Notes: generated from the sequence alone by a model not told the origin. Numbered from the stretch's first letter, positions 1 through 37,099 are shown. The stretch is 64,000 nt of DNA from an uncultured Candidatus Saccharibacteria bacterium (GCA_964450605.1 CAYVEK010000002.1:199805-263804); one strand, 5' to 3'. A program made the numbers and translations.

Positions 1-3000
1 CTGAAGCCCAGATGGCTGCCGCAATAGTTGATGTAGAATAATCAGACAATGTTCTAGTTGCAGAACTCCACACATCAGCAGCTGTTAGTGTACTTCGAGA
101 TGATACTTGCGCATCCAAGTTGTCAGCAATCTTCTTTCCAATACTTCCTGTTGTTGTCAGTGCAGATGCAGCAACATCCCAGATCGCTTGTTTTGAGGCA
201 GTTGAGAGATCGACTGTTGAGTTAAGTGATCGCGCGCCATATGCCCAAACATCGGCAGCTGAGACGTTATTAAGCGCTTGTATCAATGCTCTGTTTGTCT
301 GTATTTCAGATATAACCGTTGAGATTGAACCATTTATATTATCTTTCAAAAGTTTTCCAACTGAGCCTGTTGTGTTTATAGATGATGTCAAAACATTCCA
401 CACATCAGCCGCAGTTATATCATTTCCATAACTTGTTAGAGTTCTTGAACCGTTTGCCCAGATAGCTGCAGTTATACTTGATGTCGCGTAGTCACTAAGT
501 GTTCGCGTTGCTGCATTCCAAACATCGGCTGCTGTAAGATTACTTGTTCCCCGTGTTGAGACTTGTGCATCTAAGTTGTCAGCAATCTTCTTTCCAATAC
601 TTCCTGCAGTTGTTAATCCTGAAGCCGCCACATCCCAGATAGCTTGCTTTGATGTGTTTGAGATATCTACGGTTGAGTTAAGTGATCGTGCACCATAAGT
701 CCAAACATCTGCAGCGCTTATGTTATTCAAAGATTGGATGAGAGTTCGGTTTGTCTGTATTTCAGTTATTACATTTGAAATAGAGTTGTTCAAGTTGTCT
801 TTAACTTGTTTTCCGATAGATCCAACCGTCGTGATAGATGAAGTTAGTACATTCCAAACATCAGCGGCAGTTATATCATTTCCATAGTTAGTTAGAGTTC
901 GACCAGCATTTGACCAAACAGCACTTGCAATAGAAGAAGTTCCGTAATCAGACAATGTTCTGCTTGCGGCACTCCACACATCTGCCGCAGTTAAGTTACT
1001 GATACCCCGAGAAGATATCTGTGCGTCTATATTATCAGCAATACGCTTACCTACAGATCCCGCAGTTGTAAGACTTGATGCAGCAACATCCCAGATAGCT
1101 TGTTTTGAAGCAGTAGACAGATCAACGTTTGAGTTTAGAGATCGAGTTCCATACGCCCAAACATCAGCGGCTGAAATGTTGTTTAGCGCTTGTATTAACG
1201 CTCTATTTGTTTGTATTTCTGTAACTACAGTTGAGATTGATCCATCAACATTGTCTTTTAATTGTTTACCTATAGTTCCAGGAGTTGTAAGTGTTGAAGA
1301 CAACACATTCCACACATCAGCGGCTGTGATGTTGTTTCCGTAGTTTGTAAGGGTTCGCGCCGCGTTTGACCACACTGCTGCAGTTATACTTGATGTCGCA
1401 TAATCTGTAAGTGTTCGAGTTGCAGCATTCCAAACATCTGCAGCAGTTAAGTTACTGATACCTCGAGAAGATATCTGCGCATCTAGTTTTTCTGCAATTT
1501 GTTTTCCAATACTTCCTGTTGTTGTAAGACCAGAGGCAGCAACATCCCAGATCGCCTGTTTTGATGCTGTAGAGATATTTACATCACCTGTTAAACTTCG
1601 AGCACCGTATGACCAAACATCGGCAGCTGAGACATTATTAAGTGCTTGAATTAAGGTTCTGTTTGTTTGTATTTCAGATATTACGTTTGTTACAGAATCA
1701 TTAACATTATCTTTTAATTGTTTACCTATACTTCCTGTTGTTGTAAGTGATGAAGATAAAACATTCCAAACATCAGCGGCAGTAATATCATTTCCATAGT
1801 TAGTTAGAGTTCTTGATCCGTTTGACCAGATCGCTGCTGTAAGTGTTGATGTGGCATAATCACTAAGGGTTCGAGTAGCAGAATTCCATACATCGGCTGC
1901 TGTTAAGTTACTTGTTCCTCGTGATGATACTTGAGCATCAAGGTTATCAACTATACGTTTACCGATAGAACCTGTAGTAGTTAATCCTGAAGCTGCCACA
2001 TCCCAAATCTCTTGTTTTGAAGCGGTAGAAAGATTCACATTTCCTGTGATTGTTCGTGCTCCATATGCCCAAACATCGGCGGCAGAGATGTTGTTAAGGG
2101 CTTGAATAAGTGTTCGGTTTGTCTGAACTTCTGCTATAACATTAGTTATAGTGTCATTTACATTGTCTTTTAACTGTTTACCGATTGAACCAGAAACATT
2201 TAAACTTGAGGACAGAACATTCCAAACATCAGCAGCGGTGATATCATTTCCATAGTTAGTTAGAGTTCGTGATCCACTAGACCACACTGCTGTTGTAATA
2301 GAAGAAGTTGCATAATCAGACAGTGTTCTTGTTGCTGCATTCCAGACGTCCGCAGCTGTTAGATTACTTGTTCCTCGTGTAGATATCTGTGCGTCGAGGT
2401 TATCTGCAATTCTTTTTCCTATTGAGCCTGAAGTTGTGAGCGCAGATGCAGCAACATCCCATATCGCCTGCTTAGACGCGGTAGACAGATCAACGTTTGT
2501 ATTTAGAGACCGAGCTCCGTATGCCCAAACATCAGCAGCTGAGATGTTATTCAATGCCTGAATCAAAGTTCTATTTGTAAGTATCTCCGATACTATGGCA
2601 TTTGTTGATGAAGAAACAAATGTTTCTGTTGCAAGAGATCCACCACCAGAAAGCACTTTATCTGTTAAACGTCGAACTGAAGCATATGAATCGTTCCAAA
2701 CATCAGCAGCTGCTGATCCAAGAGAGGTTATAGTTCTCACACTGTTTCCCCAAACAGAGCTTGCAATAGATGCGTTTGTTACATCAGGTGTTTTTACTAT
2801 AAATGTTTTTTCAGATTTTATGAGATTTCCTGCCGCAGTAGATCCACAAATAATAAAAGAGGGGTACGTACCGTTTGTACCCGGTGCTGTTAAGTTGTAG
2901 TACTGCCAACCAGCTGAACCGAGCGTAGTTGATGCATGAGCAAACACAGTTCCGTTTGGATTATAAACCAAAACCGAACAGACATCTGATGTCGGTGTAA

Positions 3001-3151
3001 GATCATCATCGAATACAAACTCACCTACAGTAACAGCATCACCCGGTGCATAGACATTTGAAGTAGCAAACAATAAGCATGGTGCAATTAAAAACGTAAG
3101 TAGTACGTAACGGAAAAATTTTGTTTTGTATGCTTTTTTCAAGTAGACCAT
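1..3151 (-). CDS. Giant secreted repeat protein, 5' part only; the gene runs off the left edge of the window. It has an N-terminal Sec-type signal (MVYLKKAYKTKFFRYVLLTFLIAPCLLFATSNVYA) followed by a globular region. After that come tandem units of about 150 aa (about 450 bp), each made of three roughly 50-aa sub-repeats carrying the motif (I/L)(T/S)AADVW(N/A).
   Basis: Hand translation of the reverse complement from the ATG at 3151 gives a continuous open frame to position 1. The track lists no ORF here because no stop codon falls inside the window. The AADVW motif recurs about every 150 bp, for example at 246, 392, 518, 700, 853, 978 and 1160 through 2700. Confidence 0.7.
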   Translation of the reverse strand, partial: MVYLKKAYKTKFFRYVLLTFLIAPCLLFATSNVYAPGDAVTVGEFVFDDDLTPTSDVCSVLVYNPNGTVFAHASTTLGSAGWQYYNLTAPGTNGTYPSFIICGSTAAGNLIKSEKTFIVKTPDVTNASIASSVWGNSVRTITSLGSAAADVWNDSYASVRRLTDKVLSGGGSLATETFVSSSTNAIVSEILTNRTLIQALNNISAADVWAYGARSLNTNVDLSTASKQAIWDVAASALTTSGSIGKRIADNLDAQISTRGTSNLTAADVWNAATRTLSDYATSSITTAVWSSGSRTLTNYGNDITAADVWNVLSSSLNVSGSIGKQLKDNVNDTITNVIAEVQTNRTLIQALNNISAADVWAYGARTITGNVNLSTASKQEIWDVAASGLTTTGSIGKRIVDNLDAQVSSRGTSNLTAADVWNSATRTLSDYATSTLTAAIWSNGSRTLTNYGNDITAADVWNVLSSSLTTTGSIGKQLKDNVNDSVTNVISEIQTNRTLIQALNNVSAADVWSYGARSLTGDVNISTASKQAIWDVAASGLTTTGSIGKQIAEKLDAQISSRGISNLTAADVWNAATRTLTDYATSSITAAVWSNAARTLTNYGNNITAADVWNVLSSTLTTPGTIGKQLKDNVDGSISTVVTEIQTNRALIQALNNISAADVWAYGTRSLNSNVDLSTASKQAIWDVAASSLTTAGSVGKRIADNIDAQISSRGISNLTAADVWSAASRTLSDYGTSSIASAVWSNAGRTLTNYGNDITAADVWNVLTSSITTVGSIGKQVKDNLNNSISNVITEIQTNRTLIQSLNNISAADVWTYGARSLNSTVDISNTSKQAIWDVAASGLTTAGSIGKKIADNLDAQVSTRGTSNLTAADVWNAATRTLSDYATSSITAAIWANGSRTLTSYGNDITAADVWNVLTSSINTTGSVGKLLKDNINGSISTVISEIQTNRALIQALNNVSAADVWAYGARSLNSTVDLSTASKQAIWDVAASALTTTGSIGKKIADNLDAQVSSRSTLTAADVWSSATRTLSDYSTSTIAAAIWAS

Positions 3152-3176: not shown

Positions 3177-3335
3177 CTATTTTTTCTTCGAGTCATCAAC
3201 AGACTTGAATGCTCCAAGTATGTGTCGTATTGCGTCGGCTACACTTTTTGTTAGTTCCGGTATTTTTTTCGGACCAAACAATAGTACAGCCAAAATTGCA
3301 ATTATTATTATTTCTTTTGTTCCTAGTCCAAACAT
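3177..3335 (-). CDS. tatA: Twin-arginine translocase subunit TatA/E, 52 aa.
   Basis: Hand translation gives MFGLGTKEIIIIAILAVLLFGPKKIPELTKSVADAIRHILGAFKSVDDSKKK. This has the TatA-like N-terminal transmembrane helix and the LLFG-KK-P hinge motif. It falls below the 60-aa cutoff of the ORF track. Confidence 0.75.
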   Translation of the reverse strand: MFGLGTKEIIIIAILAVLLFGPKKIPELTKSVADAIRHILGAFKSVDDSKKK

Positions 3336-3349
3336 ATTTTTTTAAAAAA

Positions 3350-3514
3350 TTATTTTTTATTTTTACCCTCATCAGAACCACCTTTAAACGCTCCTGTGAT
3401 GTGCTTTACAGCCTCAACAAGACTTTTGGCAAGTTCTGGTATTCTCTTTGATCCAAATAGCAATATAGCTATAACCAAGATGATTATTAATTCTTTTGTT
3501 CCTAGTCCGAGCAT
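3350..3514 (-). CDS. tatA: Second TatA/TatB-like paralog, 54 aa.
   Basis: Hand translation gives MLGLGTKELIIILVIAILLFGSKRIPELAKSLVEAVKHITGAFKGGSDEGKNKK. It is a paralog of the adjacent tatA with the same hinge motif. Confidence 0.75.
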   Translation of the reverse strand: MLGLGTKELIIILVIAILLFGSKRIPELAKSLVEAVKHITGAFKGGSDEGKNKK

Positions 3515-3531
3515 ATATTATATAAAAAGTT

Positions 3532-4263
3532 TTATGATATTAATTTGGGCTTACGTCCTTTGTTTCGGTTGACTAAAATAGTTAACTCGTAAATAAGTAA
3601 CATAGGCAGCGCCATCAGTATTAATGATAACCCGTCGGTAGGTGGAAGTAAAGAAACAAAGATAAAAATAAGAAAATATGCGAGGCGTCTATGTTTTCTA
3701 AGTGTTGCTGGATTTATAACTCCGATGTTTGACAAAAAAGTGATAATGATTGGAAATTGAAATATCAATCCAAGAAGAGACGCGGTAACTACAATATCAG
3801 ATATAAACTTCCCTATATCCCAGTAGTTTACAACCCCCAGACTCACATTTATCTGAGCTATCATATTTATACCTACATAGAGAACTAAAAAACCATATAT
3901 AAAACCAACGAAAAATAACAACAATGCGACTGGTATTAATAAAATAAACAACTTCTTTTCCTTTGAGCGTAGACCTGGACTTAAAAATGCATATATATGG
4001 TATATAGTTACAGGAGTAATAAATACGCTGGCAATAAAAAAACCTGTACTCATGGCAATATCCACCATCTGAAACGGTGAGCTAATCACTATAGACACAT
4101 TTTCAAAGTTCAAAAGACGTATTGCAGTTTTGACAATAAAACCTGTACCCAAAAAACTTACAATAAAGACAGCGACAAAAAGCTTAACCAGTATGATTAT
4201 TCGCCTTTTTAAATCCTCGAGAAAAATTCCGTATTCTGCTATATAGGCGTCTAATTTGCTCAT
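3532..4263 (-). CDS. tatC: Twin-arginine translocase subunit TatC, 243 aa and six transmembrane helices.
   Basis: The size, six hydrophobic segments and the N-terminal FLEDLKRRI motif (compare TatC HLxELRxR) fit TatC. It lies immediately upstream of two tatA genes. Confidence 0.75.
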   Translation of the reverse strand: MSKLDAYIAEYGIFLEDLKRRIIILVKLFVAVFIVSFLGTGFIVKTAIRLLNFENVSIVISSPFQMVDIAMSTGFFIASVFITPVTIYHIYAFLSPGLRSKEKKLFILLIPVALLLFFVGFIYGFLVLYVGINMIAQINVSLGVVNYWDIGKFISDIVVTASLLGLIFQFPIIITFLSNIGVINPATLRKHRRLAYFLIFIFVSLLPPTDGLSLILMALPMLLIYELTILVNRNKGRKPKLIS

Positions 4264-4266
4264 GTT

Positions 4267-4446
4267 TTATTCGGACATAATAAATATATTTCCTCCTCCG
4301 CCTGTAAGAACAAGCTCCATGACCAGATATTGTTCGCTTGATGGTTCAAACAAAATATCAACAGGACTAAAAAGTGTTCCAGTAGGTATTTCCACAATAA
4401 AATCCTGCCCTTCCCCTGTTTGAAAATTAATGTCAGTCAGAGCCAT
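4267..4446 (-). CDS. Small hypothetical protein, 59 aa (MALTDINFQTGEGQDFIVEIPTGTLFSPVDILFEPSSEQYLVMELVLTGGGGNIFIMSE).
   Basis: Open frame found by hand. It sits between the 4454..5089 gene and tatC with 3-7 nt gaps, in operon context. Confidence 0.4.
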   Translation of the reverse strand: MALTDINFQTGEGQDFIVEIPTGTLFSPVDILFEPSSEQYLVMELVLTGGGGNIFIMSE

Positions 4447-4453
4447 ATATAGA

Positions 4454-5089
4454 TTATACTATTATTTTTCTAATACGACGATTATTTATACTAACAACCG
4501 GCTCTGCTGGTGCAGGAGTTTCAATTGGTGCTGGAGTCGGCTCAGCGGCTGGAGTCTGTGGTATTGGATCCACAACAGGTTCCACGACCTGAGAAGATAC
4601 AGGGTCTCCTGCTGGTGGTACAACCACAGGCTCAACAGGAGGTGTACTTGATGCATTTGTATTATTTTCTACAGGCGTAGCTGGTGCAACAGGTTCAGAT
4701 GGAACAAGAGGTTGTTCTGTTGGAGCGGTAGGTGTCGGTGTTTGTATGACCTCATTCTGAACAGGTGCTTGAGCAGGAGTTTGTTGCTGAGGTACTTCAG
4801 GAGTAGGTTGTGCAACAACCTCTTGCTGTACAGGTGTACCAACGGCATCATTTATAGTTGTGTTTGGATCGAACTTTAATATCTCTTTTTCAAGTTCTTT
4901 TTCATCGTTTATTGTATACACAAGACCACCATACTCTATATACTGAGCCTCAAGCCAGCAAAAAGGCTCATCAGGAGTTTCAACTTTTGCACAAATAACC
5001 ATATCAGAATCATTTCTCTCCCCTGTTTGTTCATATACAACAAGGTCTGGTCTATCTTTTACTTTTTGTCCTTTTTCAAGATAAATCAT
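4454..5089 (-). CDS. Hypothetical protein with a roughly 75-aa N-terminal domain and a long Pro/Thr/Glu/Val-rich linker tail.
   Basis: ORF track. Low-complexity PT-rich C-terminus. One nucleotide separates its start from the stop of the 5091..7241 gene. Confidence 0.55.
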   Translation of the reverse strand: MIYLEKGQKVKDRPDLVVYEQTGERNDSDMVICAKVETPDEPFCWLEAQYIEYGGLVYTINDEKELEKEILKFDPNTTINDAVGTPVQQEVVAQPTPEVPQQQTPAQAPVQNEVIQTPTPTAPTEQPLVPSEPVAPATPVENNTNASSTPPVEPVVVPPAGDPVSSQVVEPVVDPIPQTPAAEPTPAPIETPAPAEPVVSINNRRIRKIIV

Positions 5090-5090
5090 A

Positions 5091-7241
5091 TTAGTTTTGT
5101 GTTAGTAATGCTCTTACTTTGATGTTATCACCTAGAGATGCAGGTGTATATCTGATATATGTTGTTTCGTTTGCCTTATCTGTAGTGTTATATGCCCCCC
5201 AAGTACTTCCGCCGTCTGTAGATTTTTCCCAAGTACCTGTTGGAGATGCTGAGTTATCGTCGACTAATGATCCACCTGTTACAGCATCATACAAACGAAC
5301 ACGAAGTGTTGGGACTGTTCCACCAAACGCTGTAGCAAATCTCCATGCAAATCTTTTATCAGTAGTTGAAGATTGCGCGACTGACGGCTGATAATGTGAG
5401 TCTGTTGTATTGTCCTCGTACAAAACAGCCAGTGATAAAAGTCTGGCTGGTATACCATGAACGTTTCCAATTGTTTGAAATTCAAATTTAAATTGAATAG
5501 ATGTTGTACCGGTAACAGAAGATAGATCTCCTGATTGATCGATGAGAGTCCAAGAACCACTATTATCTGAAATACCAGATGTTCTGTAATAGGATCTATA
5601 CATCATGAGAGGTGTAACAAAAACACCAGAACCCAAACTTGTAACACATTCTGTTAAAAATCTTTTAAACTTAGAGTTATTTGGTGTTGATATTTCAGGA
5701 GAAATTGCCACATTGTTTGTAACAGAAGTTAGATTCCAGTCGGCAACTATAGCAAGAGCATGCAGACCTGTTGTACCTGTAGTAGCCGAACCAACACGGA
5801 GTACGTGCGCGATACCATTACTCGTTTCGATATACAAGGCGGCGTTTCTTGTGTCATACGGCAGAGGTACAGAATCAGAATCAGCGGCCGCGTTATCAAG
5901 CTGTACAAATGCATTTCCAAATATGAACTCGAACTCATCTCCTGATGTTGTTGGATATATAGTTAGATAATTTCGTGCACCTGTTGCACCTGTTGTTGTT
6001 ATATAAAACCTATCCGCTGCAGGTGAATAGTTGATAAAAGTCATAACACTCGACGCAGCTTGAACCGTAGCTCCTCCTGGTGGCATTTCAATACGGTTAT
6101 CTGATTGCCAAGTCAAGTTACCTGCTGTTATGTTTGTTTCTGCCGCTCGATACACACGAGTTGTGGTTACAAAATATATAGACTTCACACCACTACCAGC
6201 ACCATGCGATGCGGTACATATGATACCGTTGTTTGTTTGTGATGCAGTACCTGTTACAGACTGCGCTCCGGTTACAACTATGTTTGCACCAGCAAGAGTC
6301 ATTTTACCCGCAGTTATGGAGTCGTTTGCTCGTAAGTTGTATTTAAATATTTTGCACGAAGTCGTACCGTCAAGCACATATGCAAAATGAGAAGTTGAAG
6401 TAAAGTTTGTTTTTACATTTCCATCAACAGTAACTCCACATGCAACAGTGTTAGTTACCGTAGCAGCATCTGCCAACCAATATGTTAGTTTTAAGTTATC
6501 AACAGTAGAAGCTGATGCTGCTATAGTTGTACCTGTTGTTGTAAAATCATCCCATGTTATACCCTTTCCTACAAACAATCCTCCGTTAGTCGTTGTTGTG
6601 TTTGTAAGAGTGATTACTGGACGAAGCTCTTCTATAACATAAGCCGTACCTGCTGAAATGGTTCCAGCTGTAAGTGTAAGTGTTATAGATGTATCGCTAC
6701 CTATAGCTGATATGTAGTACCAAGTTGTAACTTGCGTTGGATCTGTTGTTCCAAAACCGATACGCGCACCGACCGCTATACGCTGTGTGGAAAACTGCGT
6801 ACTTGTTCCTGTAACAGCTGTTCCTGATACTGCAACAGTTCCTGTTATGTGCGTATAGTAACACATACGAAAACCTCTTTGTACGTTAGTGGCGTTAGTT
6901 ACAGAAAAAGTTATAAAACCTTTCCAGGCGTATGTTGAAGTCGCTCGGTTATATGTATATGCAGTTATTCTTTTTGCCGTAGTTGTTACGGCTTCGATAC
7001 CAAAAACCCAATCAATAGTAGAAGACCATTGTACTGAGTCTATATATACCGGAGGTATAGATGTGGACTCATCAACAGGTCGTGCAAGGTTTGGCTTAAC
7101 TGGACCGATGAATTTATCAGTTACAAGAGCTCCTGTATATTGTTTTATCTGTGGTCCAAGATTCCAATTAGCCGCATTATAAGAACCCGGATAATCGGTG
7201 GTAGTACCTGTAGCTAATTGTTCAACAACTCGTAATGCCAT
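5091..7241 (-). CDS. Large (716 aa) Thr/Ser/Gly-rich protein of unknown function that looks mostly beta. It has no N-terminal signal peptide.
   Basis: ORF track. No hydrophobic N-terminus. It sits in the same operon as the Tat genes. Confidence 0.55.
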   Translation of the reverse strand: MALRVVEQLATGTTTDYPGSYNAANWNLGPQIKQYTGALVTDKFIGPVKPNLARPVDESTSIPPVYIDSVQWSSTIDWVFGIEAVTTTAKRITAYTYNRATSTYAWKGFITFSVTNATNVQRGFRMCYYTHITGTVAVSGTAVTGTSTQFSTQRIAVGARIGFGTTDPTQVTTWYYISAIGSDTSITLTLTAGTISAGTAYVIEELRPVITLTNTTTTNGGLFVGKGITWDDFTTTGTTIAASASTVDNLKLTYWLADAATVTNTVACGVTVDGNVKTNFTSTSHFAYVLDGTTSCKIFKYNLRANDSITAGKMTLAGANIVVTGAQSVTGTASQTNNGIICTASHGAGSGVKSIYFVTTTRVYRAAETNITAGNLTWQSDNRIEMPPGGATVQAASSVMTFINYSPAADRFYITTTGATGARNYLTIYPTTSGDEFEFIFGNAFVQLDNAAADSDSVPLPYDTRNAALYIETSNGIAHVLRVGSATTGTTGLHALAIVADWNLTSVTNNVAISPEISTPNNSKFKRFLTECVTSLGSGVFVTPLMMYRSYYRTSGISDNSGSWTLIDQSGDLSSVTGTTSIQFKFEFQTIGNVHGIPARLLSLAVLYEDNTTDSHYQPSVAQSSTTDKRFAWRFATAFGGTVPTLRVRLYDAVTGGSLVDDNSASPTGTWEKSTDGGSTWGAYNTTDKANETTYIRYTPASLGDNIKVRALLTQN

Positions 7242-7291
7242 ATTTTATATAAATCTTTAAATTAATTTCTCTAATTATAACCTACCCTTCA

Positions 7292-8065
7292 TCAGACTTC
7301 CAAATAATCAACATTGATCTGGACTGTCGCACCTGCACTTAAGACGCAGTAGACTTCTTGGTTTACACCACCTTCAACAAAGTTAGGGTGATTATTCGCA
7401 CCATACAACCCTCCAGCCTTAGGCGACACGTATTTTTCATAATCAGTACCACCTGATGTAAATCTAAAAGAAACAGAACCCAGATCAGATGTTAATGAAA
7501 AACGTGTACTGTAAACCCGTATTTTCTTTCCACTTGAAGGCGTTATAACTGTTCCAGAGTTTGTTAGGGTTACGGTCTGCTTTAAAACACTTTGTCCCGA
7601 GATAATAGTTTGAAGAGTCTCTTCTGTTGCAGGATTTACTCTTGTATTTGAAGCATTTTTTACACCAACCACACTTGAAGTTGGAGTTGCTCCCATAACG
7701 TATGCCTCAGCCTTTTTAGGAATCATCGATATTGCAACCGCCCCAAGACCTGCCATACTCGCAAGTTTCAAAAATGATCTTTTTTTAGGGTCTACGCCTT
7801 CAATTTCATGAACAACCTGCTCTGGCACCACCTTATCAACTATCACGTTTTTATCTTCTCGAGCTTCGATAACTGTTTCAGAAACAACTTTTCGTTGTGT
7901 TCTTTTTTCTACATATACAGGCTTTAATATCCCGTCAATACTTCCTACTACTGGGAATCTTTGCGGCTTTGAAAAACTTTGAGAGTCATCAGAAACAGTC
8001 ACAGCATCATGCCGCATCATTTTTTGTGATAGAAATTTAAAAGGATATCTGCTGCTCGACAACAT
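7292..8065 (-). CDS. Hypothetical bitopic or secreted protein, 257 aa. It has a 95-aa charged N-terminal region, then KKRSFLK-LASMAGLGAVAISMI-PKKAEA, which resembles a signal or anchor segment, then a roughly 140-aa C-terminal beta domain.
   Basis: ORF track. A KR variant of the Tat S/T-R-R-x-F-L-K motif is followed by a hydrophobic core and an AxA site. An in-frame TTG at about 7783 would instead give MKLASMAGLGAVAISMIPKKAEA, a classical N-terminal signal. Confidence 0.5.
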   Translation of the reverse strand: MLSSSRYPFKFLSQKMMRHDAVTVSDDSQSFSKPQRFPVVGSIDGILKPVYVEKRTQRKVVSETVIEAREDKNVIVDKVVPEQVVHEIEGVDPKKRSFLKLASMAGLGAVAISMIPKKAEAYVMGATPTSSVVGVKNASNTRVNPATEETLQTIISGQSVLKQTVTLTNSGTVITPSSGKKIRVYSTRFSLTSDLGSVSFRFTSGGTDYEKYVSPKAGGLYGANNHPNFVEGGVNQEVYCVLSAGATVQINVDYLEV

Positions 8066-8160
8066 ACTTGATTATTATATCACCATATTTTGTAAAAATA
8101 CAAAAACAAAAAACCTTTACGTGTGGGTAAAAGTTTTTTGTTTAGATTTTATTTTCTTTG

Positions 8161-8234
8161 CGCAGTCGACCGGATTTGAACCGGCGACCTTCCGCGTGAC
8201 AGGCGGACGTTCTAACCAGCTGAACTACGACTGC
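8161..8234 (-). tRNA. tRNA-Asp (GTC) with no encoded CCA.
   Basis: Reverse complement GCAGTCGTAGTTCAGCTGGTTAGAACGTCCGCCTGTCACGCGGAAGGTCGCCGGTTCAAATCCGGTCGACTGCG. It has a 7-bp acceptor stem, a CTGTCAC anticodon loop and a TTCAAAT T-loop. Confidence 0.85.
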
Positions 8235-8326: not shown

Positions 8327-8403
8327 TGGTGTCAGTGGGAGGAATCGAACCTCCGACCTTGGGCTTATGAGTCCCACGCTCTAACCGACTGAGCTACACT
8401 GAC
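8327..8403 (-). tRNA. Elongator-type tRNA with CAT anticodon (Met, or Ile2 if lysidinylated). CCA is encoded.
   Basis: Reverse complement GTCAGTGTAGCTCAGTCGGTTAGAGCGTGGGACTCATAAGCCCAAGGTCGGAGGTTCGATTCCTCCCACTGACACCA. Positions 1 and 72 are paired, and the anticodon loop is CTCATAA. Confidence 0.8.
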
Positions 8404-8411
8404 TCTTCTTG

Positions 8412-8482
8412 TTGCGAGGCTTGGATTTGCACCAAGGCTTTCAGGTTATGAGCCTGACGAGCTACTGTTACTCCACCCCGCT
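8412..8482 (-). tRNA. Putative initiator-like tRNA (CAT) with non-canonical features.
   Basis: Reverse complement AGCGGGGTGGAGTAACAGTAGCTCGTCAGGCTCATAACCTGAAAGCCTTGGTGCAAATCCAAGCCTCGCAA. It closely resembles E. coli tRNA-fMet: unpaired positions 1/72 and the same D-stem and acceptor stem. However, the D-loop has no GG, the T-loop reads TGCAAAT, the variable loop is 4 nt, the anticodon stem has two G-C pairs instead of three, and there is no CCA. Confidence 0.5.
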
Positions 8483-8560: not shown

Positions 8561-9433
8561 CTAAAAATGCAAACAGAACAGGCATTTAGCCGTGAAATAT
8601 ACTACATATAATCCCACTATCATAAATGGACCAAACGGTATCTCCGTTCTAAGTCCCAGACTTGGAAATTTTCTTTTTAGATACGCCCCTAGACGACCTT
8701 TAAATATCTGTATGCCCAGTGCATTATTTTTAGATGAAAACGCTGTTATAGCCTCACCAAACAACATACAAGCAACTATAACAACAGTACCTATCCAAAA
8801 TGAGTATACAATTGCAGTAAAGCCGTAAGCCATACCTAACATCCATCCTATAGGTAGTGCAAGCTTTGCGTCACCTAACCCCATCCATCTTCCACCAGAT
8901 ACAAACCATAATAAGGCAAAAGGTAGAGCCATCAGTGGACCTGCTATGAGTGCAGATTGTATAGTTGGACTTGCCATGATTGTTTGATGCGTAGAGAAAG
9001 CTAAAATGATTCTAAGTACAGCTAGACCTCCTGCTGTATATACCAAGCCATCTGGTATTATCTTATGTCTAAAATCATACACAGCTATGCATATAAGCAG
9101 TGCTGCGATGATCCAATCTATACCAATGAGCCAGAATGGTGAAAGTAAATTATGTGTATATATTGCAGTAAACAAAAAAGCTGTGACTATTTCTACTAAA
9201 GGATATTGTACAGATATGCGTGCTTTACACGTACGACACTTACCTTTATACCAAAGATAACTAAAGACAGGCACAAGATCTTTTGCAGACAACTCCCTTC
9301 CGCAGGAGAAACATTTTGATCTACCGCGTGATATAGATAGGCCAGTGTTATATCTATATATAACTACGTTAAGAAAACTTCCTATAAGTAAACCGAAGAT
9401 AAAGATAAATGGAATGTAAAAATTAAAAAACAT
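8561..9433 (-). CDS. pilD: Prepilin (type IV leader) peptidase and N-methyltransferase, A24 family.
   Basis: An N-terminal GSFLNVVIYR segment is followed by two CxxC pairs (CFSCG...CRTCK). There are eight transmembrane helices and a GLGDAKL catalytic motif. Confidence 0.8.
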   Translation of the reverse strand: MFFNFYIPFIFIFGLLIGSFLNVVIYRYNTGLSISRGRSKCFSCGRELSAKDLVPVFSYLWYKGKCRTCKARISVQYPLVEIVTAFLFTAIYTHNLLSPFWLIGIDWIIAALLICIAVYDFRHKIIPDGLVYTAGGLAVLRIILAFSTHQTIMASPTIQSALIAGPLMALPFALLWFVSGGRWMGLGDAKLALPIGWMLGMAYGFTAIVYSFWIGTVVIVACMLFGEAITAFSSKNNALGIQIFKGRLGAYLKRKFPSLGLRTEIPFGPFMIVGLYVVYFTAKCLFCLHF

Positions 9434-9658: not shown

Positions 9659-11461
9659 TTATGGAAGGTATGTAAGTGTTGTTGTATCAAGAGCTTCGAA
9701 TCCTGCGAACTGTGTTTGTGCAGATCCGCCTGTAGGTGTCCACTGGATACCTCGAACTCGAGCCTTGTAAGTAGCTCCTGAAGTTAGAAGAGCTGCTGGG
9801 AATGCTGCTGTAATCTCGAAGTTCTTAACAGCGCCTTTAGCAACTGTTGTAAGACCACTTTCTGCGAATACTGCTGCTGTTGTTGTTCCAACAACTGCTC
9901 CTGAAGCAACGTTTACTAGGTCAATTGTTGATGAAGCTGAAGCGTTGATGTTTCCACCTAGTGCTGTCAGACTTAGAACGAATTTAGCCTGGAATCCTGT
10001 TACTACAGAGTTTGTTCCTGTCTGTCGCTCAAGTGATGAAGAAACTTTTCCGAATCGTGGTACAGCTGGAGCAAAGTATGCCCATACAGTTGTTCCTGGG
10101 ATTAGAGATGACTGTGAGGCGATACCTGTTGAGCCATTTGGTTTCTCATACATAACTTGTGCAACTCGTGTAGATACAACTGTTCCTGAAGTTGTGTTTG
10201 CAGGAAGGTCAGCCTTGATTGAGAATGTTTTGATTGTATCTACTGGAACTGTAACATTGTAGTTTGTAAGATCGAATGTTACTGAACCTGAAGCTGTTGT
10301 TGAAGCTACAACTGATCGAGCGTCGATCATTGTTGATCCATCGTATAGGTATACGTTTGAAGGAAGTGTTCCACCTGTTCCGTTTGCTCCGGCTGCAGAT
10401 AGAAGTCCTGTGTTAACGGCTACTGTTACAGATGTAAGTTTTGATACTCCTGTCTTTGACTCAACTGCGAATGTAGAAGTAAGAACTTTTTCAGCTCCGT
10501 TTCCTGTTGTATTAACATCGTAGTTTGTAGAGTAAAGAGTTGTAGCATCATCCTGTGCTGTCATAGTAGATGTACCTGGTTTCTTGAATGTGTGTGTTCG
10601 AGAGTCAGATAGTGCGTTGTAACTACTGATTCCTCGTCCATCAACTGTTCGGATACCTGATGTACCATAAACATTGAATCGTACGTATCGGTCTGAGTCA
10701 ATTGAGTTTGAGTTTACAGAAACTGTCAATGTCTTGATAGTATCTTTAGCAACTTTAACTCCTAGACCAGAGATCTGTACGTAATACTTGTTAGGTGTAA
10801 CTGAAGTATCTCGTGAGAATGTTGATGAATTAACTGGGATTGTAGCTAGAACTGTTGATCCATCTTTAACTGTTACAGTATTGATCAAAGTTGAAGGGTT
10901 CTCCTGTGATGTAAATGTGTTTGATGTATCTACAGCAACTTCAAGGTTAACTCGCTCTACCATGATGTCTGACTGCTTAGCTTTGAACTCAACAGCGTAA
11001 ACATTAACATCTGAGTTAGATGTAACGTTTGGATTGTTAACAACTACTGGTGATACTCGAACCTCAGCAAATCCCTCTGAACCTACTAGAACATTATTAT
11101 TGTTCTGGTTATTGTTCTGGTTATTATTTCCTTGGTTATTGTTCTGGTTGTTGTTTCCCTGGTTATCATCAGCAGGACCTGCGTTTAGAACTTCTCGAGT
11201 CATAGGACCAACAAATCCTGTTCCTGGAAGATCATTAGCAAGCTGGAAGGCTACAACAGCTTTCTTTGTGATTGAACCAAAGTAACCTGTAGCGTTTCCA
11301 TTAAAGAATCCAGCGTCAGCTAGGTATTCTTGTAGAGCCTTAACATCGGCATTTTTCATACCCATCTTAAGGTTTTTGTTAAACATATAACCTTCTGCTA
11401 CTACACTTACTGAAAAAGCAAGTGCTAGAGCGAAGATTGATGTTGCAAGTAATTTTTTCAT
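9659..11461 (-). CDS. Secreted 600-aa surface protein. It has a signal peptide, an N-terminal peptidoglycan-binding (PG_binding_1-like) domain, an NNQGNN repeat, and a long Thr/Ser/Val-rich beta region.
   Basis: Signal MKKLLATSIFALALAFSVSVVA. Domain signature VKALQEYLADAGFF...GYFGSITKKAVVAFQ...LPGTGFVGPMT. An 18-bp tandem coding repeat lies at 11090-11180. Confidence 0.75.
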   Translation of the reverse strand: MKKLLATSIFALALAFSVSVVAEGYMFNKNLKMGMKNADVKALQEYLADAGFFNGNATGYFGSITKKAVVAFQLANDLPGTGFVGPMTREVLNAGPADDNQGNNNQNNNQGNNNQNNNQNNNNVLVGSEGFAEVRVSPVVVNNPNVTSNSDVNVYAVEFKAKQSDIMVERVNLEVAVDTSNTFTSQENPSTLINTVTVKDGSTVLATIPVNSSTFSRDTSVTPNKYYVQISGLGVKVAKDTIKTLTVSVNSNSIDSDRYVRFNVYGTSGIRTVDGRGISSYNALSDSRTHTFKKPGTSTMTAQDDATTLYSTNYDVNTTGNGAEKVLTSTFAVESKTGVSKLTSVTVAVNTGLLSAAGANGTGGTLPSNVYLYDGSTMIDARSVVASTTASGSVTFDLTNYNVTVPVDTIKTFSIKADLPANTTSGTVVSTRVAQVMYEKPNGSTGIASQSSLIPGTTVWAYFAPAVPRFGKVSSSLERQTGTNSVVTGFQAKFVLSLTALGGNINASASSTIDLVNVASGAVVGTTTAAVFAESGLTTVAKGAVKNFEITAAFPAALLTSGATYKARVRGIQWTPTGGSAQTQFAGFEALDTTTLTYLP

Positions 11462-36947: not shown

Positions 36948-37012
36948 GTGTAGATATTAACATATTAACAAACTAAACCATTCTGGTTATACTCAACACT
37001 TTATTTCCCTAG

Positions 37013-37099
37013 CGGAGGAAGTGGGATTCGAACCCACGGGGCAATTTCTCACCCGACAGTTTAGTAAACTGTTGATTTAAACCACTCATCCATTCCTCC
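37013..37099 (-). tRNA. Type II (long variable arm) tRNA-Ser-like gene with anticodon ACT and no encoded CCA.
   Basis: Reverse complement GGAGGAATGGATGAGTGGTTTAAATCAACAGTTTACTAAACTGTCGGGTGAGAAATTGCCCCGTGGGTTCGAATCCCACTTCCTCCG. It has a perfect 7-bp acceptor stem, a 3-bp D-stem and G73, all Ser identity features. The anticodon stem ACAGT/ACTGT closes the loop TTACTAA. Confidence 0.55.

Follow-up and report, generated by a model that had tools for sequence, protein, structure and literature searches.

A minimal Tat translocase and a set of proteins with relatives in phages are encoded side by side in a gene string that is strongly conserved in Paceibacteria-type Patescibacteria (ultra-small bacteria). 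In the 64-kb window (the whole stretch of DNA that was analyzed), the string reads p257, p716, p211, p59, tatC, tatA, tatA, and a giant repeat protein, all on the minus strand. Of 14 genome loci at species level, 13 have the order p257-p716-p211-p59-tatC-tatA; in the metagenomes, p716 lies directly behind p257 at 38 of 39 loci, and all 12 loci long enough to show tatC contain it. Since this order is kept across many species, with p716 only 45-60% identical among them, the arrangement goes far beyond chance, and the operon conservation on which the earlier note had staked its reading is borne out. The interpretation we prefer, with confidence about evenly balanced, is that a dedicated, cargo-linked TatAC exports a complex of phage-derived proteins, folded beforehand, by a hitchhiker mechanism.

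The string begins downstream of a tRNA-Asp gene (8160-8234), which is followed by a terminator-like hairpin (8104..8143, minus strand; a 17-pair stem and then a T-run) that is the upstream boundary of the string. An extended -10 element, TGaTATAAT (8074..8082, minus strand), was recognized by eye and is a putative promoter for p257. It ends 8 nt ahead of the p257 ATG, and because these 8 nt contain no Shine-Dalgarno sequence, the p257 transcript may be leaderless; the element is absent from the list of the consensus scan because it has no -35 hexamer. The ORFs then follow with intergenic gaps, from p257 to the giant ORF, of 50, 1, 7, 3, 17, 14, and 25 nt. The tightly packed minus-strand string ending in tatC-tatA-tatA that had been described from this DNA therefore holds, with gaps of 1-50 nt; its count of nine genes becomes eight, the number of ORFs seen in the window. 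The best promoter match that the scan gave in the region, TTGGAA-18-TATAAT (10/12; 7274..7303, minus strand), sits at the p257/p716 junction and may, as a weak candidate, be an internal promoter for p716. Promoter-like sites in the region are in total no more numerous than in shuffled sequence.

The translocase genes are readily assigned, as tatC (3532-4263) and both tatA paralogs (3350-3514, 54 aa; 3177-3335, 52 aa), all on the minus strand, pass Pfam thresholds. The match of TatC to PF00902, the family of six-TM-segment TatC proteins, spans profile positions 2-208 of 208 (4.5e-38), and the protein aligns over its full length with Aquifex aeolicus TatC (PDB 4B4A, 2.8e-19). Its score against the NCBIfam equivalog model, 117.9 bits, is below the cut-off of 132.7 bits, as expected for a divergent lineage. 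In the alignment with 4B4A, LEDLKRR corresponds to LRELRYR and LRSKEKK to LYSHEKR, with acidic residues at or next to both sites, which may be the equivalents of E15 and E103 in the signal-binding site of E. coli TatC. The two TatA proteins are ~61% identical, match TatA_B_E (PF02416) at 5.6e-12 and 2.4e-11, respectively, and have TatA/E rather than TatB as their best NCBIfam match; the first also matches solved TatA chains. No further TatA or TatB paralog was found in the 64-kb window. When loci were sampled with TatC instead of the cargo as the starting point, 4/4 had a Tat-signal cassette immediately upstream, which, together with the conserved order, supports the view that the tat genes are cargo-linked. 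The earlier note had held that many RR-motif proteins elsewhere in the genome would point to a general-purpose Tat; the search covered the 64-kb window and ~718 kb of related flanking DNA, a part of that genome-wide scope, and no other Tat-motif protein turned up in either.

The closest known layout is phoD-tatAd-tatCd of B. subtilis, likewise a TatA/TatC-only translocase in a single-membrane bacterium with an adjacent, co-expressed substrate gene. TatAdCd has one known cargo, PhoD (PMC6708511). Unlike that system, the string described here has a four-gene cassette in place of a single enzyme, the order cargo-tatC-tatA-tatA, and a KR signal behind a long N-terminal extension instead of an RR signal; three of the four cargo genes have no signal, phages have the cargo as well, and the cassette varies by lineage.

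The signal-bearing cargo, p257 (7292-8065, minus strand), consists of a conserved N-terminal peptide (residues 1-15), a variable, disordered linker (16-93), a Tat-type signal (94-121), and a mature part (122-257) made up of an INPATEETL segment and a jelly-roll domain. The signal core (7703..7786, minus strand) opens with KKRSFLK at residues 94-100, followed by LASMAGLGAVAISMIPKKAEA. Broken into its parts, it reads K94-K95-R96-S-F-L-K100, a hydrophobic region LASMAGLGAVAISMI, and P-K-K-A-E-A, with cleavage predicted after A121; the canonical motif is S/T-R-R-x-F-L-K. Across the p257 family, which has >500 proteins, the pattern is D-x-x-K/R-R-x-F-L-K, then a hydrophobic core rich in Gly, then P-K-K and A-E-A. 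Counted column by column in 121 sequences, D occurs in 118, R in 120, F in 119, L in 114, and K in 115; at the first basic position, 110 have K and 10 have R (KR in ~91%). The h- and c-regions follow the consensus AGxAGLGxVA, P at -6 (118 sequences), K-K, and A-[ED]-A (A at -3 in 108, at -1 in 117), that is, a moderately hydrophobic, Gly-rich h-region, a basic c-region, and an A-x-A site, so that all anatomical elements of a Tat signal are represented. The score of p257 against TIGR01409, 15.4 bits, is just under the 16.7-bit cut-off and counts against the preferred reading. Judged by the conservation of its columns, the KR motif of p257 is conserved and is probably a Tat-type signal rather than a chance match, as the earlier note had proposed from the motif, hydrophobic core, and AEA site. 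The nearest precedent is TtrB of the Salmonella tetrathionate reductase, whose Tat signal is normal apart from a natural K-R in place of R-R. KR is tolerated in Tat signals, with TtrB as a native example, but such native cases are rare, and TtrB has been named the only known native KR cargo (PMC6708511). Here, unlike in TtrB, KR is the rule in a large family of non-redox proteins from another phylum.

What is unusual about the p257 signal is its position. The motif starts at residue 94 rather than at the N-terminus, and all 120 homologs have 21-113 residues ahead of it (motif start at residues 22-114). Many of them share a conserved YSFRLVSKK-like peptide at the N-terminus, so the extension is translated. 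Long Tat n-regions are known; an extension of this length is unusual. No suitable in-frame TTG start was found: the only TTG near the motif is the Leu codon of FLK. GTG codons lie 16-17 codons upstream of the motif. A downstream start, which had been suggested to yield a textbook signal peptide, is unlikely given the extension in every homolog. Cleaved signals do not usually have such an extension with a conserved tip, which, along with a helix at residues 93-113 in the predicted p257 model, fits a different fate, in which Tat inserts the hydrophobic stretch as an uncleaved N-in/C-out anchor, as in Rieske proteins, leaving the N-terminal region in the cytoplasm and the jelly roll tethered to the membrane with or without partners. 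We regard this as unlikely, since the conserved A at -3, A at -1, and P at -6 constitute a signal-peptidase I site, and the hydrophobic region is short and Gly-rich, like those of cleaved Tat signals.

The other three cargo genes encode proteins without signals. p716 (5091-7241, minus strand) is an all-beta protein with a six-bladed beta-propeller; its N-terminus is a structured strand with no hydrophobic stretch, and no signal peptide was found among ~270 representatives of its family. The signal-less state noted earlier for the 716-aa protein therefore extends to the family, and export of p716 would need a partner. p211 (4454-5089, minus strand) starts with a domain of ~85 aa that also occurs in small phage ORFs adjoining p716; a linker rich in Pro, Thr, Glu, and Gln comes next, and the basic tail RRIRKIIV forms the C-terminus. 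The Pro/Thr-rich linker is missing from most phage copies; as a cell-wall-type, cell-specific addition, it fits export, as does the Tat signal of p257. p59 (4267-4446, minus strand) is small and conserved, and its gene immediately precedes tatC. None of p716, p211, p59, and the p257 C-domain has a match in Pfam, PHROG, or NCBIfam. A small signal-bearing protein encoded with a larger signal-less partner recalls E. coli hydrogenase-2 (HybO/HybC), DmsAB, and FdnGH, in which the partner is carried along after assembly in the cytoplasm. The principle of hitchhiker co-export of signal-less subunits by Tat is cited in PMC6708511 (reference 32). By analogy, p716, p211, and p59 would be co-exported with p257. 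The known hitchhikers belong to cofactor-containing redox enzymes, whereas no cofactor motif or enzyme family is present here, the proteins are of beta-propeller and jelly-roll structural types, and the complex is a putative one.

The cargo families are shared with phages. About 190 full-length homologs of p716 (38-57% identity) occur in viral contigs, at loci of 24-72% GC, where their neighbors are tail-fiber, virion structural, terminase, holin, and head-completion families, portal, and capsid; p716 thus has sequence homologs among the structural genes of phage genomes. The p211 N-terminal domain adjoins p716 in 38/80 viral loci, and a p59 homolog comes behind p716 in 19/80. In phage contig L082, the order is terminase, portal, a protein with the p257 C-domain, p716, the p211 N-terminal domain, p59, protease, and capsid (major head protein), and neither a Tat signal nor tat genes are found with this four-gene module. 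The p257 jelly roll stands beside p716 in only 2/80 viral loci, L082 and L096; it also occurs in lambda-like head modules without p716, and the gene usually upstream of p716 in phages encodes a different domain. Structurally, the p257 jelly roll resembles phage cement and turret proteins, and the Foldseek matches of p716 are uncultured Caudovirales proteins, some labeled P22 gp10-like, tail knob, or tail spike (E 1e-11 to 1e-5). These likenesses, to capsid cement, decoration, and turret jelly-roll proteins and to beta-propeller tail or hub proteins (for example KHP40 gp16, STIV C381, and P22 gp10-like "stabilization" proteins), are at the level of the fold only (for p716, 7-12% identity and TM 0.2-0.27), and no match in Pfam, PHROG, NCBIfam, or GenBank phage records placed the proteins in a named phage family whose function in the virion is known. 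No homologs were found in cultured-phage GenBank records (tblastn) or in PHROGs. The phage kinship of p716, the p211 N-terminal domain, p59, and the p257 jelly-roll domain had gone unremarked in the earlier note.

Phage relatives of the cargo genes, and tRNA genes (common integration sites) directly upstream, could also mean a general-purpose Tat that happens to lie beside a prophage remnant, in a neighborhood without functional meaning. This is very improbable, and synteny largely refutes it: divergent species keep the order, integrase, terminase, portal, and capsid genes are absent from the cellular loci, the conserved Tat signal of the first gene is missing from the phage copies, and other Tat-motif proteins are lacking nearby. 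Unlike phage virion proteins, the cellular copies are chromosomal, have a Tat signal, and go together with tatCA.

More serious is the question of whether p716 leaves the cell at all. p257 could be the sole Tat cargo, with p716, p211, and p59 staying in the cytoplasm as a phage-derived sensor or decoy in defense or as an assembly factor, near tat for regulatory or historical reasons. In one close relative, p716-p211 lies ~350 kb away from p257-p59-tatC-tatA, so co-transcription is not required; p59 stays next to tatC even where p716 sits elsewhere. This separation and the rarity of the jelly roll beside p716 in viral loci count against co-export, and the possible separate promoter ahead of p716 and the lack of any p716 family member with a signal agree with a cytoplasmic p716. 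As a rule, fiber and hub proteins of phages form trimers or hexamers, and p716 in such an oligomeric state would be larger than any known Tat cargo, which also counts against co-export. We nevertheless consider a cytoplasmic p716 rather improbable, in view of its near-constant place behind p257, the wall-linker-like Pro/Thr-rich tail that p211 gained only in cells, the extracellular neighboring giant protein, and a second, unrelated cassette in sister lineages. In cells, this type-2 cassette has a small partner with a Tat signal followed by a large protein without one; in phages, the small partner has no signal and the large protein again comes behind it. The layout thus generalizes and the cassette is replaceable. 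Indirect support for a complex of p257 with p716 comes from their adjacency in phage contigs L082 and L096 and from that of the type-2 pair in phages. Of the private Tat pathway proposed earlier, the conserved linkage stands; the replaceable cassette and the distant p716-p211 had not been seen in the earlier note.

If the dedicated, cargo-linked TatAC is the right reading, the minimal Tat (TatC and two TatA, no TatB) would act as follows. p257 would be made with its genuine N-terminal extension and KR-type twin-arginine signal, while p716, p211, and p59 would fold and bind it in the cytoplasm. TatC would recognize the p257 signal, the four proteins would cross the membrane as a pre-assembled complex of ~120 kDa at 1:1:1:1 stoichiometry, and cleavage after A-E-A would release the small jelly-roll protein outside. 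The complex would then reside at the surface of the cell, close to the giant repeat protein exported by Sec, which suggests display of domesticated virus parts. Its role may be attachment to host cells, serving an episymbiotic lifestyle, or interference with adsorption of related phages, with neither candidate favored. We also put forward, more tentatively, that Paceibacteria-type Patescibacteria keep Tat chiefly, or even solely, for the display of domesticated modules from phage virion surfaces, with the slot before tatC-tatA taking interchangeable phage-captured cassettes of at least two unrelated types, in each of which a small partner has the KR Tat signal and the large protein is carried folded. 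If true, no earlier Tat pathway would have been devoted to cargo that is structural, free of cofactors, and derived from phages, and native KR Tat signals would have their first large family.

The giant AADVW-repeat surface protein that ends the string (1..3151, minus strand, ATG at 3151) is cut by the left end of the window and has its own Sec-type signal, MVYLKKAYKTKFFRYVLLTFLIAPCLLFATSNVYA. Its tandem repeats are 456 nt (152 aa) long, with 5.7 copies in the window. It is a conserved neighbor of the string, in either orientation, and in its relatives a dockerin domain forms the end of the protein (in the L018 homolog, Dockerin_1).

The gene string that the earlier note described around tatC and two tatA genes is borne out and gains strength, with every open reading frame at its position on the minus strand, except that eight rather than nine of them lie in the window. 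The first four encode proteins that we name by their length in amino acids, p257 (7292-8065), p716 (5091-7241), p211 (4454-5089), and p59 (4267-4446). These are followed by tatC (3532-4263, 243 aa), a first tatA (3350-3514, 54 aa), a second tatA (3177-3335, 52 aa), and a very long open reading frame, here called the giant protein, that starts at an ATG at 3151 and runs beyond the window's left end. From p257 to the giant protein the intergenic gaps are 50, 1, 7, 3, 17, 14, and 25 nt. TatC matches its Pfam family (4.5e-38) and can be aligned over its full length with the Aquifex TatC of solved structure, and both TatA proteins match the Pfam TatA-family model as well as solved TatA chains. The giant protein has a Sec-type signal at its start and 152-aa tandem repeats, and in relatives its homologs have a dockerin domain at the end. 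On the 5′ side of p257 are three tRNA genes and a terminator-like hairpin at 8143-8104. An extended -10 element (TGaTATAAT) stops 8 nt short of the p257 ATG, and the interval lacks a Shine-Dalgarno sequence, an arrangement that fits a leaderless start predicted at 8065. Two tRNA-Met (CAT) genes 7 nt apart (8327-8482, minus strand) lie upstream of a tRNA-Asp gene and the Tat string, and further upstream are genes for a prepilin peptidase (8561-9433) and for a secreted protein with a peptidoglycan-binding domain (9659-11461). One relative, L018, has its Tat cluster flanked by these neighbours too. Elsewhere in the window, ARAGORN calls a tRNA-Ser at 37012-37099 (minus strand) whose anticodon, ACT, is unusual for bacteria; a miscall is possible, as is a modified or otherwise odd tRNA.

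The signal of p257 is conserved throughout a family of which 532 members were detected. In all 119 listed homologs with an identified Tat motif, the distance from the motif to the C-terminus is exactly 163 residues. The motif columns of 121 sequences read D (118), x, x, K (110) or R (10), R (120), x, F (119), L (114), and K (115), followed by A-G-x-A-G-L-G-x-x-A, P at -6 (118), and K-K, and the cleavage-site columns read A (108), E/D, A (117), and then Y or L. These columns show the complete anatomy of a Tat signal, namely the motif, a weakly hydrophobic Gly-rich core, basic "Sec-avoidance" residues, and a signal-peptidase site. Its sole departure is K-R instead of R-R, and the TIGR01409 model scores p257 at 15.4 bits against a cut-off of 16.7. 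According to one review (PMC6708511), KR in Tat signals slows transport without blocking it, and TtrB is the only known native KR cargo. We regard p257 as very likely a Tat substrate. The earlier note had suggested a downstream start that would bring the motif close to the N-terminus, a proposal that we abandon: no suitable in-frame start lies beside the motif, and 21-113 residues precede it in all 120 listed homologs. Since every homolog carries this extension and a peptide such as ML-GS-YSFRLVSKK (in the window, MLSSSRYPFKFLSQK) recurs at the N-terminus of many of them, the extension is translated. The segment VG-K---N-RINPATEETL occurs three times in tandem in the p257 homolog P0143, and DINPATEEN is also found in a phage small partner (L171, 5591-5998). 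By this distribution, the PATE segment behaves as a separate module, possibly for docking.

Homologs of p716 and TatC were found in Patescibacteria labelled Paceibacterota, Zambryskiibacteriota, Nomurabacteria, Yonathbacteria, and "Parcubacteria". The conserved arrangement, which we define as p257, one to three p716 paralogs, p211, p59, tatC, and one or two tatA, is kept as far as the contig reaches in 13 of the 14 species-level genome loci found with p716, across which p716 identity is only 43-57%. Among 59 metagenome loci found with p257, p716 lies directly 3′ of p257 in 38 of the 39 with room, and tatC was found in all 12 with enough downstream sequence. The gene order whose conservation the earlier note wished to see checked is thus retained. 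The giant protein adjoins the cluster in most loci, either downstream or upstream and divergent. Two more conserved genes (~300 aa and ~565 aa, no Pfam match) follow it in relatives (L018 17308-19888; L161 12097-14701; L162 12491-15206; L163 12189-14750); here they would fall past the left edge, and the window thus shows only part of the conserved string. In one close relative, whose flanking genes are the same, p257-p59-tatC-tatA-tatA-giant lies at this position and the p716-p211 pair ~350 kb away, and p716-p211 is therefore a separable module. The protein beside the relocated pair (L003) was considered as a p257 homolog and is not one.

To counter the bias of a cargo-anchored search, four TatC homologs on long contigs were sampled, and in all four loci a Tat-signal protein cassette lies directly upstream of tatC. 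This synteny lends good support to the idea of a private Tat system with linked cargo. A simple scan for other Tat substrates, defined by a [KR]R-x-hydrophobic motif and then an uncharged hydrophobic stretch, agrees with that idea: p257 is the only such protein in the 64-kb window, and ~718 kb of related Patescibacteria DNA, a sample biased to the cluster neighbourhood, contained only p257-family Tat proteins. The remaining pattern matches in the ~718 kb were TatC's own membrane segments, spurious ORFs, and Sec-type signals.

The largest cargo protein proved to belong to a sizeable family, with 1479 homologs of p716 (E <= 0.001) among 8000 candidates scored and 585 clusters at 50% identity in an exhaustive profile search. 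No match to p716 was found in Pfam, NCBIfam, PHROGs, or PDB sequences, and membership in PF23810/DUF7182 was rejected, as the matches on some long homologs fall below threshold. Foldseek against viral models returned uncultured Caudovirales proteins of similar length with E values as low as 1e-11. The labels that some of them bear include P22 gp10-like "stabilization" protein, tail knob, tail spike, and endosialidase propeller, but the global TM-scores are low (0.2-0.27). As the earlier note had maintained, p716 has no signal peptide: its N-terminus is a structured strand common to all homologs, and neither a Tat or Sec signal nor a direct fusion of a Tat signal to p716 was found among ~270 family representatives.

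Unexpectedly, phages have homologs of the cargo genes. A scan of IMG/VR gave ~190 homologs with 38-57% identity over the full length. In the 80 viral p716 loci retrieved, no tatC or tatA was found and only two show p257 similarity, while 125 neighbour proteins match phage families (tail-fibre, tail, virion structural, collagen-like minor tail, terminase, holin, head-completion, and crAss muzzle). The GC content of these loci ranges from 24 to 72%, and they are therefore phages of many hosts. That the "viral" contigs are misfiled Patescibacteria DNA was rejected for most of them on the strength of the phage structural neighbours and this GC range. Iterative searches found a small ORF homologous to the N-terminal domain of p211 (p211N) adjoining p716 in 38 of the 80 loci and a p59 homolog in 19. 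The contig L082, plainly a phage, has the order terminase, portal, 351-aa protein, p716, p211N, p59, head protease, and major head protein; the 351-aa protein has at its end the jelly roll that forms the C-terminal domain of p257, without a Tat signal, and the module equals the window's four cargo genes in identical order. In lambda-like head modules (L075, L076, L078), too, the p257 jelly roll forms the end of a protein encoded next to the portal gene. The gene that phages usually have upstream of p716 was tried as a jelly-roll homolog and discarded at a profile-profile probability of 0.1. In a p716 neighbour-joining tree, Tat-linked cellular clades branch among viral ones, and viral sequences account for the deepest diversity, a pattern suggesting that p716 passed from phages to cells, probably on more than one occasion. 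No p716 tblastn match was found among 50,697 GenBank phage records, and phage p211N, p59, and the small partner of the second cassette type described below have no match in PHROGs. We have little doubt about the phage relationship of the cargo. Compared with its phage counterpart, the cellular jelly-roll protein gained an N-peptide, a linker, and the Tat signal. Cellular p211 gained a 100-250-aa Pro/Thr/Glu/Gln-rich tail, often with a basic end, whereas phage p211N copies are mostly 60-90 aa. Unlike the phage copies, the cellular module lies directly 5′ of tatC. Linkers of this kind are typical of the wall-spanning regions of single-membrane bacteria's surface proteins.

A second type of cassette occupies the position upstream of tatC in three of the four TatC-anchored loci, which come from Nomurabacteria/Yonathbacteria-like relatives (L161 4560-8996; L162 4344-8959; L164 4421-8977). 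Its small partner has the same signal and first mature segment (YV-GSTPTS-VVGVK--N-RI-PATE) as p257 but another C-domain, and its large protein is Kelch-like, 944-958 aa (two ORFs in L161), and unrelated to p716. A third protein of 288-309 aa combines a coiled coil, a glucosaminidase-like region, a Pro/Glu-rich linker, and a basic tail; its relatives were sought in viral contigs and not found. Full-length homologs of the large protein do occur in viral contigs, and in four viral loci a small ORF precedes it whose homology to the signal-bearing partner is confined to the C-domain; no Tat signal or tat genes were found in those four loci. Two independent pairs of small partner and large protein are thus adjacent in phages and have a Tat signal on the small partner in cells. 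Among the indirect arguments for carriage of the large protein by its signal-bearing partner, this shared pattern is the strongest.

The data show what the genes are, that the signal and the synteny are conserved, and that the cargo is related to phage proteins; binding, co-export, a surface location, and a biological role for the complex we infer along the following lines. p257 would be translated from the ATG at 8065, and p716, p211, and p59 would fold in the cytoplasm and bind its jelly roll. TatC would recognise the KR signal, TatA oligomers would let the folded complex through (~120 kDa if 1:1:1:1), and signal peptidase would cleave after A121. The complex would then stay at the surface, where the linker and tail of p211 and the giant dockerin-bearing protein may hold it. 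Hitchhiking of p716, that is, its export as a folded, signal-less partner of p257, is plausible but unproven, and we give it even chances.

The closest operon logic is that of phoD-tatAd-tatCd in B. subtilis, the closest transport logic is subunit hitchhiking in hydrogenase, DMSO reductase, and formate dehydrogenase, and the closest signal is that of TtrB. The window locus differs from all three in that its cargo is structural, cofactor-free, related to phage proteins, and encoded by several genes, its cassette is exchangeable between lineages, and KR is the norm in its family, behind a long extension. The usual rationale for Tat is that cofactor-containing enzymes have to be exported. For the tiny, metabolically poor Patescibacteria, the literature only records the presence of tatA and tatC in Paceibacteria and some others and offers no explanation beyond gene presence (PMC9166423). 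No earlier description of the cargo-tatC-tatA arrangement was found in the searchable literature. Our main addition to the original idea is that the Tat cargo is apparently a phage-derived module, and the locus offers a concrete, testable answer to why Patescibacteria have Tat, with a conserved phage-derived complex as the putative cargo. If true, this would be the first candidate Tat cargo in this radiation, a large natural family of KR signals where one review knows TtrB as the sole native case (PMC6708511), and a new route for cells to reuse phage structural proteins. It would also provide candidate surface molecules for poorly understood host attachment or dealings with phages, and put a widespread function-free phage family on the map (~190 viral contigs, 585 clusters at 50%).

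That family of widespread phage proteins is unannotated, with no Pfam or PHROG model for its ~190 viral-contig matches, and in the viral loci (L081-L160) p716 usually adjoins tail-fibre genes and one or two small partner ORFs. Tandem copies of p716 are seen in some viral loci (L081, L088, L115) and, as two or three paralogs of up to ~950 aa through insertions, in several cellular ones (L007, L008, L011, L043, L048, L056), a hint that a binding surface is diversifying.
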